Of a DNA stretch of 64,000 nt, positions 55,491 to 60,000 are shown piece after piece. Both the position numbers and the translations under genes were made by a program. Source of the DNA: Escherichia coli (lineage in GTDB: Bacteria; Pseudomonadota; Gammaproteobacteria; Enterobacterales; Enterobacteriaceae); NCBI RefSeq assembly GCF_003018255.1, contig NZ_CP027440.1. One strand, given 5' to 3'. Under the pieces are notes generated by a model, which was given only the letters and a program-made list of their open reading frames with translations, searched no databases and was not told where the DNA came from. Position 1 is the first letter of the stretch. Each line of letters starts with the position of its first letter.

Positions 55491-56420
55491 CTACGCCGTT
55501 GGAGGTAGCCACGGACGTCCCAGCGCCGATCCCTGTACGCCATGTTCATTCAGATAACGATCCAGCTCGACCATTCCCGTCCATCGATTTTCGCACCACA
55601 GCGGAGCAAGCAGCGTCGGGCGACGGGCGCTGGCGGAAATGCGGTGGTAGATCACTTCCGGTGGCGTATGGCGAATCATTTCTCCGGCAGTGAGCGTGTA
55701 ATCCTCCAGTTCAATTCCGTTCAAACGCCCCGCTTCCCAGGCTTTCGCCATAATACTGCCTTTCACAATATGCAGCGGATGCAGCTTTATGCCGTCCACG
55801 CCGGTTTCAACCACTCGCTCCAGCGTTTGCAAACATTCCGTCTGCCCTTCGCCAGGCAGGCCGACAATTAAGTGGGAACACACCTTCAGCCCGCGCTGAC
55901 GTGCCAGCTGGGTTGTACGCTGATAACAGGCAAAATCATGGCCGCGGTTGATGCGATGCAGCGTTTTGTCGTGGGCGGTTTGTAGCCCCAGCTCCAGCCA
56001 CACTTCGTAACCCTGGTCCTTATATTCGCAAAGCAGATCCAGCACCGCATCCGGCACGCAGTCCGGGCGGGTACCAACACACAAACCGACAATATTGGCC
56101 TGGCTCACCGCCTGCTGATACATAGAACGCAGCACCTGAACTTCCGCAAAGGTGCTGGTATACGCCTGAAAGTAGGCCAGATAGCGTTTAGCGCGGTTAA
56201 CTAAATTCGCCTGGTGCGCCAGTTGCTCGGCAATGGAACGATGCTGCTGCGCTTCATCGGCAAACGAGGCCACATTACAGAATGTGCAGCCACCACGCCC
56301 GATGGTACCGTCACGGTTAGGGCAGCTAAAACCGCCGTGCAGCGTCAGCTTATGCACCTTTTGCCCATAACGACGGGTGAGATCACCACCAAACATATTG
56401 ACTAATTTCTGTAACTGCAT
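55491..56420 (-). CDS. yhcC: Radical SAM family protein YhcC
   Basis: Track ORF 55491..56453 (TTG) trimmed to in-frame ATG (MQLQKLVNMFGG...), 309 aa; Cys cluster CPNRDG...CTFC. Confidence 0.9.
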   Translation of the reverse strand: MQLQKLVNMFGGDLTRRYGQKVHKLTLHGGFSCPNRDGTIGRGGCTFCNVASFADEAQQHRSIAEQLAHQANLVNRAKRYLAYFQAYTSTFAEVQVLRSMYQQAVSQANIVGLCVGTRPDCVPDAVLDLLCEYKDQGYEVWLELGLQTAHDKTLHRINRGHDFACYQRTTQLARQRGLKVCSHLIVGLPGEGQTECLQTLERVVETGVDGIKLHPLHIVKGSIMAKAWEAGRLNGIELEDYTLTAGEMIRHTPPEVIYHRISASARRPTLLAPLWCENRWTGMVELDRYLNEHGVQGSALGRPWLPPTA

Positions 56421-57094
56421 AATCTGATAGACCGCGCCTTGAAAAGAGGCCAAAGCCTGCCATTTTTAGCCCAATTCGGCGATGACCTGGATCAATCGTC
56501 CCGGCCTGCTTTTATCAACTGCATAATCAATCAAAATTACCGAAATTTCATGCACAATCACATAAATCACTTTTGCTTATCTTGTGTCAGATTTTTTTAT
56601 CTCCTTATGGATTTTAGGCAAAAACAGTAGCATGAAACGTTATTACCAATTAAGGCAGTATAAAATGCTGGTTTTCTCGTCAGTTCAAGGCAGGATAAGG
56701 GTTAACACGCCTTTATGACAGTCAGGAATTGGCTGTTTCTCTAACGACGCCCCTTTTAGCCTTAAATAGAAAATCCACTTTAATTTCAGCCAATTAATAA
56801 AGAATTTTGCGCTAAAGCACATTTCTGTACCAATAAGCTTGCCATTTGACCTGTATCAGCTTTCCCGATAAGTTGGAAATCCGCTGGAAGCTTTCTGGAT
56901 GAGCAGCCTGCTCATCATATTTATGCAGTAATTGAGATCCCCTCTTCACCGTATTAACCGATGCGAAAAGGACAACAAGGGGGCGAATGCGAGGCGCGCG
57001 TATGACACGCAAACCCCGTCGCCACGCTCTTTCTGTGCCCGTGCGCAGCGGTTCGGAAGTGGGGTTCCCGCAGAGCCTGGGGGAGGTTCACGAT

Positions 57095-60000
57095 ATGTTG
57101 TACGATAAATCCCTTGAGAGGGATAACTGTGGTTTCGGCCTGATCGCCCACATAGAAGGCGAACCTAGCCACAAGGTAGTGCGTACTGCAATACACGCAC
57201 TGGCCCGCATGCAGCACCGTGGCGCGATTCTCGCCGATGGTAAAACCGGTGACGGTTGCGGCTTGCTGTTACAAAAACCGGATCGCTTTTTTCGCATCGT
57301 TGCGCAGGAGCGCGGCTGGCGTTTAGCAAAAAACTACGCCGTCGGGATGCTCTTCCTGAATAAAGATCCTGAACTCGCCGCTGCCGCACGCCGCATCGTT
57401 GAAGAAGAGCTGCAACGCGAAACGTTGTCGATTGTGGGCTGGCGTGATGTCCCCACTAACGAAGGCGTGCTGGGTGAAATCGCCCTCTCCTCTCTGCCAC
57501 GCATTGAGCAAATTTTTGTGAACGCCCCGGCAGGCTGGCGTCCGCGCGATATGGAGCGCCGTCTGTTTATCGCCCGCCGCCGCATTGAAAAGCGTCTCGA
57601 AGCCGACAAAGACTTCTACGTCTGTAGCCTGTCGAATCTGGTCAATATTTATAAAGGTCTGTGTATGCCGGCGGATCTGCCGCGCTTCTACCTGGACCTC
57701 GCGGACCTGCGTCTGGAATCGGCTATCTGCCTGTTTCACCAGCGCTTTTCCACTAACACCGTACCGCGCTGGCCGCTGGCGCAGCCGTTCCGCTACCTCG
57801 CGCATAACGGTGAAATCAACACCATCACCGGTAACCGCCAATGGGCGCGTGCGCGTACCTATAAATTCCAGACGCCGCTGATCCCTGACCTGCACGACGC
57901 CGCGCCGTTCGTCAACGAAACCGGCTCTGACTCCAGTTCGATGGATAACATGCTGGAACTCCTGCTGGCAGGCGGGATGGATATCATCCGTGCCATGCGT
58001 CTGTTAGTGCCACCAGCCTGGCAGAACAACCCGGATATGGACCCGGAACTGCGTGCCTTCTTTGACTTTAACTCCATGCATATGGAGCCGTGGGATGGTC
58101 CGGCAGGGATCGTGATGTCCGATGGCCGTTTCGCCGCCTGTAACCTCGACCGTAACGGTCTGCGTCCGGCACGCTACGTCATCACCAAAGATAAACTGAT
58201 CACCTGCGCCTCTGAAGTCGGTATCTGGGATTATCAGCCTGACGAAGTGGTCGAAAAAGGCCGCGTAGGGCCAGGCGAACTGATGGTGATCGACACTCGC
58301 AGTGGGCGCATTCTACACTCGGCAGAAACCGATGATGACCTGAAAAGCCGCCATCCCTATAAAGAGTGGATGGAGAAAAACGTCCGCCGTCTGGTACCGT
58401 TTGAAGATCTGCCCGATGAAGAAGTGGGTAGCCGCGAACTGGACGACGACACGCTTGCCAGCTACCAGAAACAATTTAACTACAGCGCGGAAGAGCTGGA
58501 TTCGGTGATCCGCGTACTGGGTGAAAACGGTCAGGAAGCGGTCGGTTCGATGGGCGACGATACCCCATTCGCCGTGCTCTCCAGCCAGCCGCGCATTATT
58601 TACGACTACTTCCGCCAGCAGTTTGCTCAGGTAACCAACCCGCCAATCGACCCGCTGCGCGAAGCGCATGTTATGTCGCTCGCCACCAGTATCGGTCGTG
58701 AAATGAACGTCTTCTGTGAAGCAGAAGGCCAGGCGCACCGTTTAAGCTTTAAATCGCCGATTCTGCTCTATTCCGATTTCAAACAGCTCACGACGATGAA
58801 AGAGGATCACTACCGCGCAGATACGCTGGATATCACCTTTGACGTCACTAAAACCACGCTCGAAGCGACGGTGAAAGAGCTGTGCGACAAAGCCGAAAAA
58901 ATGGTACGTAGTGGCACCGTGCTGCTGGTGCTCTCCGACCGGAATATCGCTAAAGATCGCCTGCCGGTTCCGGCTCCGATGGCGGTTGGCGCGATCCAGA
59001 CCCGTCTTGTCGAGCAAAGCCTGCGTTGCGATGCCAACATCATCGTAGAAACCGCCAGCGCCCGTGATCCGCACCACTTCGCCGTGTTGCTGGGTTTCGG
59101 CGCGACGGCTATTTATCCATACCTTGCCTATGAAACGCTGGGCCGCCTGGTAGACACCCACGCGATTGCCAAAGATTATCGTACCGTGATGCTCAACTAT
59201 CGTAACGGCATCAACAAAGGCTTGTACAAAATCATGTCCAAAATGGGCATCTCCACCATCGCCTCTTACCGCTGCTCGAAACTGTTTGAAGCGGTCGGTC
59301 TGCACGATGATGTCGTGGGCCTGTGCTTCCAGGGGGCGGTTAGCCGCATTGGGGGGGCTAGCTTTGAAGACTTCCAGCAGGATCTGCTGAATCTGTCGAA
59401 ACGAGCCTGGCTGGCGCGTAAGCCTATCAGCCAGGGCGGCCTGCTGAAATACGTGCACGGTGGCGAATACCACGCCTACAATCCGGACGTGGTGCGCACG
59501 CTGCAACAGGCGGTACAGAGCGGCGAGTATAGCGACTATCAGGAATACGCGAAGCTGGTTAATGAGCGTCCGGCAACCACGCTACGCGATCTGCTGGCAA
59601 TTACGCCGGGTGAAAACGCGGTCAACATTGCTGATGTTGAACCGGCAAGCGAACTGTTTAAACGCTTCGATACCGCCGCGATGTCTATCGGCGCGTTAAG
59701 CCCGGAAGCCCACGAGGCGCTGGCGGAAGCGATGAACAGCATCGGCGGTAACTCAAACTCCGGCGAAGGCGGTGAAGACCCGGCGCGCTATGGCACTAAC
59801 AAAGTGTCGCGCATCAAGCAGGTGGCGTCCGGTCGCTTCGGCGTTACTCCGGCGTACCTGGTCAATGCCGACGTCATTCAGATAAAAGTCGCCCAGGGCG
59901 CGAAGCCGGGTGAAGGTGGTCAGTTACCGGGTGATAAAGTCACTCCTTACATTGCCAAACTGCGCTATTCGGTGCCGGGCGTGACGCTGATCTCCCCGCC

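Follow-up and report, generated by a model that had tools for sequence, protein, structure and literature searches.

A conserved, partly structured mRNA leader in the yhcC–gltB control region of Escherichia coli

Main finding

The spacer between yhcC and gltB in the window (the whole 64,000-nt stretch of E. coli DNA analyzed here) is, with a probability of about 0.88, the divergent yhcC–gltB control region, with the gltB side organized as already described for K-12, translation starting at 57095 and an untranslated leader ahead of it. What the first-pass annotation reported for this spacer re-describes known biology, and the conserved leader alone goes beyond the literature within our reach. 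We regard the leader as a modest new lead.

The yhcC–gltB spacer and its flanks

The window locus corresponds to the E. coli yhcC (mnmL)–gltB control region, and the flanking genes are so annotated in both K-12 and a RefSeq genome that matches at 100%. Of 5426 complete E. coli genomes, 5416 matched a 1-kb query spanning the spacer, including this one at 100%, and these 5416 carry yhcC/mnmL and gltB annotation with a gltB start equivalent to 57095. The spacer measures 674 bp (56421..57094) with both boundaries backed by annotation, in line with the approximately 670 bp estimated on first inspection. Its AT-rich character was likewise read correctly, the G+C fraction being 0.35-0.40 across ~56400-56900 versus 0.55-0.60 in both flanking genes. 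K-12 positions were converted by subtracting 3297630 to obtain window positions. The two sequences are identical over 56794-57140 and show 14 differences within 56471-56793. The features on the yhcC side are as follows.

55491..56420, minus strand: yhcC/mnmL coding sequence, encoding a radical SAM protein; its start codon (56418-56420) forms the left edge of the spacer (RefSeq annotation and open reading frame list)
56421..56447, minus strand: yhcC 5' untranslated region, from the published yhcC start site at K-12 3354077, window 56447 (PMC7967276 supplement)
56434..56539, plus strand: candidate small RNA G0-10702 (K-12 3354064-3354169), divergent from yhcC (PMC7967276)

G0-10702, which runs opposite to yhcC, has its 5' end 13 nt within the yhcC leader. 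Term-seq mapped a 3' end inside the candidate, at K-12 3354141 (window 56511; PMC7815308 supplement), and the abundance of this RNA is cited in PMC4070566 as depending on Hfq. The entry was dropped from EcoCyc in 2019, evidence lacking.

The gltB promoter and its regulator sites

The gltB side of the spacer holds the promoter and the following regulator sites; positions given as published are relative to the transcription start.

56518..56561, unstranded: ArgR-protected region, published as -361 to -318 (PMC1784095)
56623..56737, unstranded: Lrp-binding region, published centers -246, -215 and -152, corresponding to ~56633, 56664 and 56727 (PMC1784095)
56766..56804, unstranded: IHF-protected region, published as -113 to -75 (PMC1784095)
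56803..56824, unstranded: Crp site, published as -76 to -55 with center -65.5, 21 bp from the -35 hexamer, repressing (PMC1784095)
56846..56874, plus strand: PgltB core promoter, -35 TTGACC (56846-56851), 17-bp spacer and -10 TAAGTT (56869-56874), by direct reading

The sigma-70-like TTGACC-N17-TAAGTT that had been picked out near 56846..56874 is the promoter of the experimental literature (PMC1784095), with hexamers conserved across genera. TTGACC carries five of the six sigma-70 consensus bases and TAAGTT three of six; a consensus promoter scan called no promoter at this position, the -10 being too weak for its threshold, and shuffled sequence yields 1.3 stronger promoter matches per kb. The hexamer pair by itself is thus not above chance, and it is conservation together with the literature that raises it above chance. 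We consider the PgltB hexamers credible because they are conserved across the Enterobacterales and match the published PgltB geometry (PMC1784095). Both are kept across 16 enterobacterial species ranging from Escherichia to Photorhabdus, where ATTTGACC is invariant and the -10 retains T1, A2 and T6 across genera (TAAGTT, TAACTT, TAACGT, TAATTT). Back-calculation from the site positions in PMC1784095 would place +1 at ~56879 (±2), since the 21-bp spacing between Crp and the -35 puts the Crp 22-mer at 56803-56824. A gltB start site entry was not found in a Cappable-seq supplement searched in two coordinate systems.

PgltB is bound by Lrp at three sites, IHF, Crp and ArgR (PMC1784095), and the expectation that the AT-rich part would suit nucleoid-associated and global regulators is borne out by the consistent mapping of these published sites onto the window. 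The motif checks proposed along with it gave a similar picture. The top match to the Lrp consensus in the whole 64-kb window, with one mismatch at 56656-56670, is centered at -216, next to the published -215. The Crp core, represented by TTTGCGCTAAAGCACA at 56806-56821 with three mismatches, has its center exactly 65.5 before 56879, as published. For IHF, the core-like TTTCAGCCAATTA at 56784-56796 (-95 to -83) does lie within the published footprint, but it has two mismatches to WATCAANNNNTTR and is absent from a scan run at one mismatch; two K-12 differences fall within this core, both at degenerate N positions. A match to the ARG-box consensus at 56518-56535 starts at -361; it has three mismatches and is one of six such matches in 64 kb. 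Lrp excepted, the Crp, ArgR and IHF matches are each no better than chance, and the agreement lies in their positions.

Transferred to the window, the published model (PMC1784095) would make PgltB a weak sigma-70 promoter with +1 at ~56879 that relies on distant activation, in which Lrp bound at three sites (~-150 to -250) is delivered to RNA polymerase via an IHF-induced bend at ~-90, and Crp at -65.5 and ArgR at ~-340 would lower expression.

The start of gltB translation

Three in-frame ATG codons serve as the gltB start in one public annotation or another.

57095..57130, plus strand: gltB start codon, propeptide and catalytic Cys; ATG 57095-57097, the 11-codon MLYDKSLERDN and Cys codon TGT 57128-57130
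56987..56989, plus strand: upstream in-frame ATG 1, start of a 1522-aa annotation, within conserved block AGGGGGCGAATGCGAGG
57002..57004, plus strand: upstream in-frame ATG 2, start of an older 1517-aa annotation, in the loop of a variable tip hairpin

Sequence comparison places the gltB start at 57095, with a predicted 11-residue propeptide before the catalytic Cys. From this ATG, which has GGAGG (57082-57086) 8 nt ahead of it, the N-terminus reads MLYDKSLERDN-CGFGLIAH, so that the catalytic Cys directly follows a short peptide. In N-terminal-nucleophile (Ntn) amidotransferases a propeptide is cleaved off to expose the catalytic Cys. By this precedent and that of solved structures the first 11 GltB residues would be a propeptide whose removal exposes the Cys; the PDB chains 1ea0, 2vdc and 1llw begin at the Cys aligned with residue 12 counted from 57095. 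We compared 80 gammaproteobacterial gltB loci: each one aligns as protein from residue 1, 2 or 9 of the 57095 frame onward, and most have a Met at most three residues from the conserved Leu-Tyr.

The first-pass annotation had listed the ATGs at 56987 and 57002 as alternative starts preceded by G-rich, Shine-Dalgarno-like sequences, leaving the N-terminus and propeptide length ambiguous. Both ATGs are indeed present, 36 and 31 codons upstream of 57095, in frame and with no stop between. The ribosome-binding claim stands for 57002, where GAGG (56991-56994) is plausibly spaced at 7 nt, and fails for 56987, where GGGGG (56979-56983) is only 3 nt away and poorly spaced. The ambiguity is real when a single sequence is considered, and annotators have differed accordingly: the identical protein is deposited at 1486 aa on at least 1000 contigs, at 1517 aa on 830 and at 1522 aa on 5. 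Comparison of the 80 loci and of 41 leaders, on the other hand, picks 57095. The leader set consists of 41 non-redundant enterobacterial leaders (16 genomic and 25 metagenomic, <93% identity). An in-frame stop fewer than 31 codons upstream bars both extensions in 26 of them, and 25 are without any in-frame upstream ATG. Among the 80 loci, five Enterobacteriaceae have an in-frame stop 7 codons upstream of the gltB start. The leaders are similar as nucleotides, yet carry frame-shifting 1- and 2-nt indels, which indicates that the conservation is non-coding rather than at the level of codons; the translated upstream frame of Enterobacter cloacae resembles a different E. coli frame. The block around ATG 56987, GGGCGA(C)ATGCGAGG, has an adjacent 1-nt indel (CGA-ATG versus CGACATG) and reads ACG or ACA in some genera, and the tip hairpin around ATG 57002 is missing in several genera. 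The proposal of alternative starts is not supported by these comparisons, and the two ATGs appear to be chance in-frame triplets within the leader. No gltB entry was found in the supplements of two N-terminomics and translation initiation papers.

It is very improbable that E. coli additionally starts at 57002, and perhaps at 56987, in which case GltB precursors would carry propeptides of 42 or 47 residues and mature to the same enzyme. Such starts could draw on the open frame from 56987, the GAGG 7 nt before 57002, the adoption of the upstream ATGs in many deposited annotations and the longer N-terminal extension ahead of the Cys in Azospirillum GltB. However, the extension is not kept as protein, being interrupted by stops, frame shifts and lost ATGs in most other Enterobacterales, and 57002 sits in a hairpin loop that several genera lack, just as the 3-nt gap disfavors 56987. 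Both ATGs are practically fixed in E. coli, the leader being invariant there, but that invariance spans the entire leader and the promoter, well beyond the upstream frame. Databases still carry the 1517- and 1522-aa GltB models, which should be 1486 aa.

Extent and conservation of the gltB leader

56879..57094, plus strand: gltB 5' untranslated leader, 216 nt, from the +1 given by published site positions and from nucleotide conservation

Transcription from PgltB would yield a 216-nt untranslated leader, with translation beginning at ATG 57095. The leader is conserved in blocks across the Enterobacterales. Identity to E. coli across genera reaches 0.97-0.99 at 56875-56894 and 56915-56934 and 0.84-0.85 at 56975-56994 and 57015-57034, compared with 0.43 upstream of the promoter and 0.71 at gltB third codon positions. 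Between the window and K-12 there are no differences in the 299 nt of 56796-57094, whereas the first 876 nt of gltB differ at 24 of their 292 third codon positions. Among 5416 complete E. coli genomes, 5408 keep this 299-nt block at 99% identity or more, a level reached by the preceding 299 nt in 114 genomes and by the first 299 nt of gltB in 4935. The G+C-richer part downstream of the promoter (56879-57094), which the first-pass annotation had missed, coincides with this conserved transcribed leader.

A 22-base degenerate leader pattern matched 120 metagenomic contigs; a gltB-type start (ATG-Leu-Tyr-Asp/Asn) follows downstream, within the stretch extracted, in 108 of the 108 that extend far enough, and the remaining 12 are without one mostly through the contig ending first. 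A covariance model built from the leader alignment gave a single match in the window, at 206 bits, and found no relative at 65 non-enterobacterial gltB loci (Orbaceae, Vibrio, Shewanella, Pseudoalteromonas, Pseudomonas and others). A scan of 56300-57300 against Rfam 15 at E <= 10 returned noise only and no relevant family. The leader appears confined to the Enterobacterales in the sampled loci. We conclude that it is under strong purifying selection and that at least part of it is structured as RNA.

Structure of the leader RNA

The structure proposed below was derived from pair probabilities averaged over the 41 leaders. This route was taken because RNAalifold on the 41-sequence alignment was hampered by the poorly aligned middle and recovered P0/P1 and the Shine-Dalgarno hairpin only.

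56883-56886 with 56926-56929, plus strand: P0 pairing, GCUG with CAGU, invariant (averaged pair probabilities, 41 leaders)
56898..56916, plus strand: hairpin P1, GATGAGCA-GCC-TGCTCATC, with compensatory changes in other genera
56917..56935, plus strand: nearly invariant AU-rich block CATATTTATGCAGTAATTG, 0.99 identity across genera, including ATG-CAG-TAA (56923-56931) and the P0 3' side
56936..57067, plus strand: proposed closed domain (mean pair probabilities over 41 leaders and pair counts)
56936-56942 with 57061-57067, plus strand: long-range helix, GATCCCC with GGGGTTC, pair-compatible
56957-56965 with 57044-57052, plus strand: inner helix, ACCG-AT-GCG with CGC-AG-CGGT, covariation above slid controls
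56982..57023, plus strand: hairpin GGCGA...TCGCC, with the variable tip GCGT-ATGAC-ACGC (56998-57010)
57073..57089, plus strand: invariant Shine-Dalgarno hairpin GAGCCT-GGGGG-AGGTTC, containing GGAGG (57082-57086), 97% paired

Over the whole model, 88% of cells are paired versus 32-47% with slid partners, and 22 pairs (78 cells) are altered on both sides versus 9-17 (19-38) when slid; the observed covariation was reached by none of 500 shuffles, in a model derived from the same sequences used to test it. When the helices are scored one at a time, compensatory changes exceed the slid controls in P1 and the inner helix (56957-56965/57044-57052) alone. In P1, 92% of cells are paired and 26 are changed on both sides (at most 9 in slid controls), and in the inner helix 20 are changed on both sides (at most 10). 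The other helices of the closed domain are 76-84% paired and compatible, with covariation no higher than in slid controls, and the Shine-Dalgarno hairpin, being invariant in sequence, shows no covariation. G-U pairs are numerous in the leader helices, with 11 at one P1 position; since each would be an A-C mismatch on the other strand, the covariation comes specifically from the sense RNA.

Single-sequence folding gave no comparable signal: the E. coli leader is no more stable than its shuffles (z = 0.29), and neither are two leader sub-regions. The segment AGAGGG (56978-56983) could pair with either of two alternative, equally compatible partners, CCCTCT upstream or GCTCTT downstream, both ~82% paired. 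An additional hairpin, P2, is present in most genera and is deleted in E. coli and an Escherichia-like relative.

Upstream open reading frames were also considered. A 14-codon frame at 56962-57006, whose stop overlaps the ATG at 57002, was rejected, its ATG being lost in several genera. The ATG-CAG-TAA mini-frame hardly varies, although four leaders have TTA in place of its stop, and it is more likely conserved as part of the P0 pairing.

A published RNA 3' end at 57027

57027, plus strand: published RNA 3' end, K-12 3354657 (Term-seq; PMC7815308 supplement)

This 3' end lies 4 nt past the hairpin at 56982-57023 and ahead of TCTTTCTGTG, an interrupted UCUUUCU. The authors of the Term-seq study filed it 25 nt inside gltB, counting from K-12 3354632, which is window 57002 (PMC7815308). 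It was filed as gene-internal because the old gltB start at 57002 was used, and at least one transcriptome study has thus called a 3' end in the leader gene-internal through that start. A terminator scan flags P1 plus ATATTTAT; the published 3' end instead follows a different hairpin, and its position at 57027 fits trimming back to that hairpin as well as termination.

What the leader may do

Most likely, the leader adds post-transcriptional control of gltB. Candidate modes are restriction of ribosome access by the Shine-Dalgarno hairpin, the formation of premature 3' ends in the leader, and the pairing or docking of small RNAs on it. A more specific proposal, which we put forward tentatively and at rather less than even odds, is that 56879-57094 makes up a cis-regulatory RNA, not described before and specific to the Enterobacterales, that responds to a defined input and sets glutamate synthase output after transcription. 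Its parts would be the 5' hairpin, the invariant AU-rich single-stranded block, the domain closed by the long-range helix and the Shine-Dalgarno hairpin; it would act by controlling how ribosomes gain access, by forming 3' ends prematurely, or by both. Its input could be iron status via RyhB, or a nitrogen or carbon signal.

The same conservation has been weighed against two other readings. An improbable one is that the leader is conserved mainly for DNA sites downstream of +1, such as an operator or polymerase contacts, and not for an RNA function. The most invariant blocks (56875-56894 and 56915-56934) never vary and hence give no covariation signal, and RNA polymerase footprints at PgltB are altered by Crp and ArgR (PMC1784095). 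Against this, P1 and the helix 56957-56965/57044-57052 change on both sides with the pairs kept, the many G-U pairs tie the signal to the sense RNA, and the conservation runs over 216 nt, well past polymerase contacts. Somewhat less improbable, though still unlikely, is that the leader chiefly serves as a docking platform for trans-acting regulators such as RyhB (iron sparing), with a proposed site in the invariant 5' segment, or CsrA, with proposed sites at the GGA motifs of 56885-56902 and at the Shine-Dalgarno hairpin. Ribosome profiling newly listed gltB as RyhB-repressed in ribosome occupancy (1.06 log2, p = 0.014) with mRNA unchanged (PMC4666370), and 56883-56906 is predicted to form a bipartite pairing with nt 42-62 of RyhB, the known seed region, at -23 kcal/mol. 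This predicted pairing is, however, not above shuffled leaders, 12% of which do as well, and the segment lies ~190 nt from the start codon. A full-length RyhB-leader duplex from global folding was discarded as meaningless; the windowed version gave a plausible, non-significant site. GltB and GltD drop upon OmrA or OmrB overproduction, but the authors of that work consider an indirect effect via ppc possible. Glutamate synthase mRNAs are reported to be targeted by iron-sparing sRNAs in Staphylococcus. No CsrA CLIP-seq link to gltB was found in our literature search.

Much of the ATP flux of the cell can go to glutamate synthase, whose regulation has been regarded as transcriptional only. With a leader that out-conserves the start of its gene and has covarying helices, an internal 3' end and a reported response to RyhB at the level of translation, post-transcriptional control of ammonia assimilation would become directly testable in enterobacteria.

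Comparison with known systems

The region is the same locus as the K-12 gltBDF control region, with identical hexamers and with the regulator sites at the same distances from +1 (PMC1784095). The differences are strain-level SNPs in the part bound by Lrp, IHF and ArgR, and nothing among them points to altered regulation. At the protein level, E. coli GltB resembles other Ntn-type glutamate synthases (Azospirillum GltB, Synechocystis Fd-GOGAT and Bacillus GltA), in which the Cys likewise follows a short removable N-terminal peptide and the solved chains begin at the Cys. Propeptide length depends on the lineage, with 11 residues in E. coli GltB and 2-3 residues either side of this in other Gammaproteobacteria; the deposited Azospirillum precursor has a longer stretch before the Cys than E. 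coli GltB.

Riboswitches upstream of nitrogen-assimilation genes in other phyla offer one parallel for the leader. In cyanobacteria, the glutamine riboswitch is a cis-acting RNA ahead of a glutamine-pathway gene. The gltB leader and the ppGpp and glutamine riboswitches share the placement of a putative cis-acting RNA before a glutamate- or glutamine-pathway gene, but no Rfam model, theirs included, matches the leader in sequence or structure. Long structured mRNA leaders of enterobacteria such as those of rpoS and mgtA, which govern translation or premature termination, offer another. Unlike these, the gltB leader is without an Rfam family match and its regulatory role is putative; we know of no regulator, ligand or leader peptide for it. 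The paper on the ppGpp riboswitch mentions gltB once (PMC6003355). With the rpoS- and mgtA-type leaders, the gltB leader has in common an untranslated length of ~200 nt, conserved helices, a hairpin at the Shine-Dalgarno sequence and an RNA 3' end within the leader.

Conservation of the yhcC-gltB region among strains

The promoter and untranslated leader of gltB are conserved more strongly than the start of its coding sequence (5416 complete E. coli genomes). When positions 56471-57140 were compared with K-12, all 14 differences in the spacer fell within 56471-56793, and the window strain was identical to K-12 throughout 56794-57140; third codon positions of gltB differ at 8%. The yhcC-gltB region is missing from 10 of 5426 complete genomes, and of the 5417 places that match this part of the chromosome, one is on a record classified as a plasmid. 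At the protein level, the 90%-identity cluster containing GltB also holds a variant of the E. coli protein with 1489 aa (P0010) and a 426-aa Salmonella enterica entry named cytosine deaminase (P0011), the latter looking like an oddity of naming or clustering.

Putative regulator sites in the spacer, and candidate small RNAs

The IHF core-like sequence at 56784-56796 reads TTTCAGCCAATTA, as against TTTCAGTCATTTA in K-12, and both changed bases occupy degenerate NNNN positions of WATCAANNNNTTR. Further downstream, TTGACCTGTATCAG at 56846-56859 resembles an FNR site (TTGAT-N4-ATCAA; 8/10 by eye) and overlaps the -35 hexamer of PgltB. An Fnr site in this promoter is listed as predicted and unconfirmed in the consulted part of PMC1784095, which gives no coordinates for it.

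One small-RNA candidate has been placed in the spacer:

56434-56539 (K-12 3354064-3354169), + strand, candidate small RNA G0-10702, within the yhcC-gltB spacer and divergent from yhcC

The start site of G0-10702 has been mapped, its 3' end by Term-seq corresponds to window position 56511 (PMC7815308), and its abundance is reportedly Hfq-dependent (PMC4070566). EcoCyc removed the entry in 2019. The 3' part of the candidate overlaps the ArgR-protected region (56518-56561). A second candidate, the 90-nt cis-antisense ECS0018, was described opposite gltBDF with no position given, and was not detected by northern blot in the same study (PMC3175480).

The gltB leader RNA

Within the invariant 5' end of the leader (56883-56906), two segments, GCUGGAAGC and UGAGCA, are complementary to nucleotides 42-62 of RyhB; the match was not significant against shuffled sequences. 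Taken with the published effect of RyhB on gltB ribosome occupancy, this complementarity is suggestive. Deeper in the leader, an RNA 3' end at 57027 on the + strand has been reported from Term-seq (PMC7815308), 4 nt past a hairpin spanning 56982-57023. That study took 57002, the older start, as the beginning of gltB and for this reason counted the end as lying within the gene; 57002 is upstream of the start codon at 57095.

Another leader hairpin varies between genera. The GCAAGU...ACUUGU hairpin found in most other Enterobacterales (columns 79-98 of A4, an alignment of enterobacterial gltB leaders) is absent from E. coli, where the equivalent stretch is 56944-56956, and from an Escherichia-like metagenomic relative with a 95.8% identical gltB. 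At the same leader site, Photorhabdus carries a far longer hairpin.
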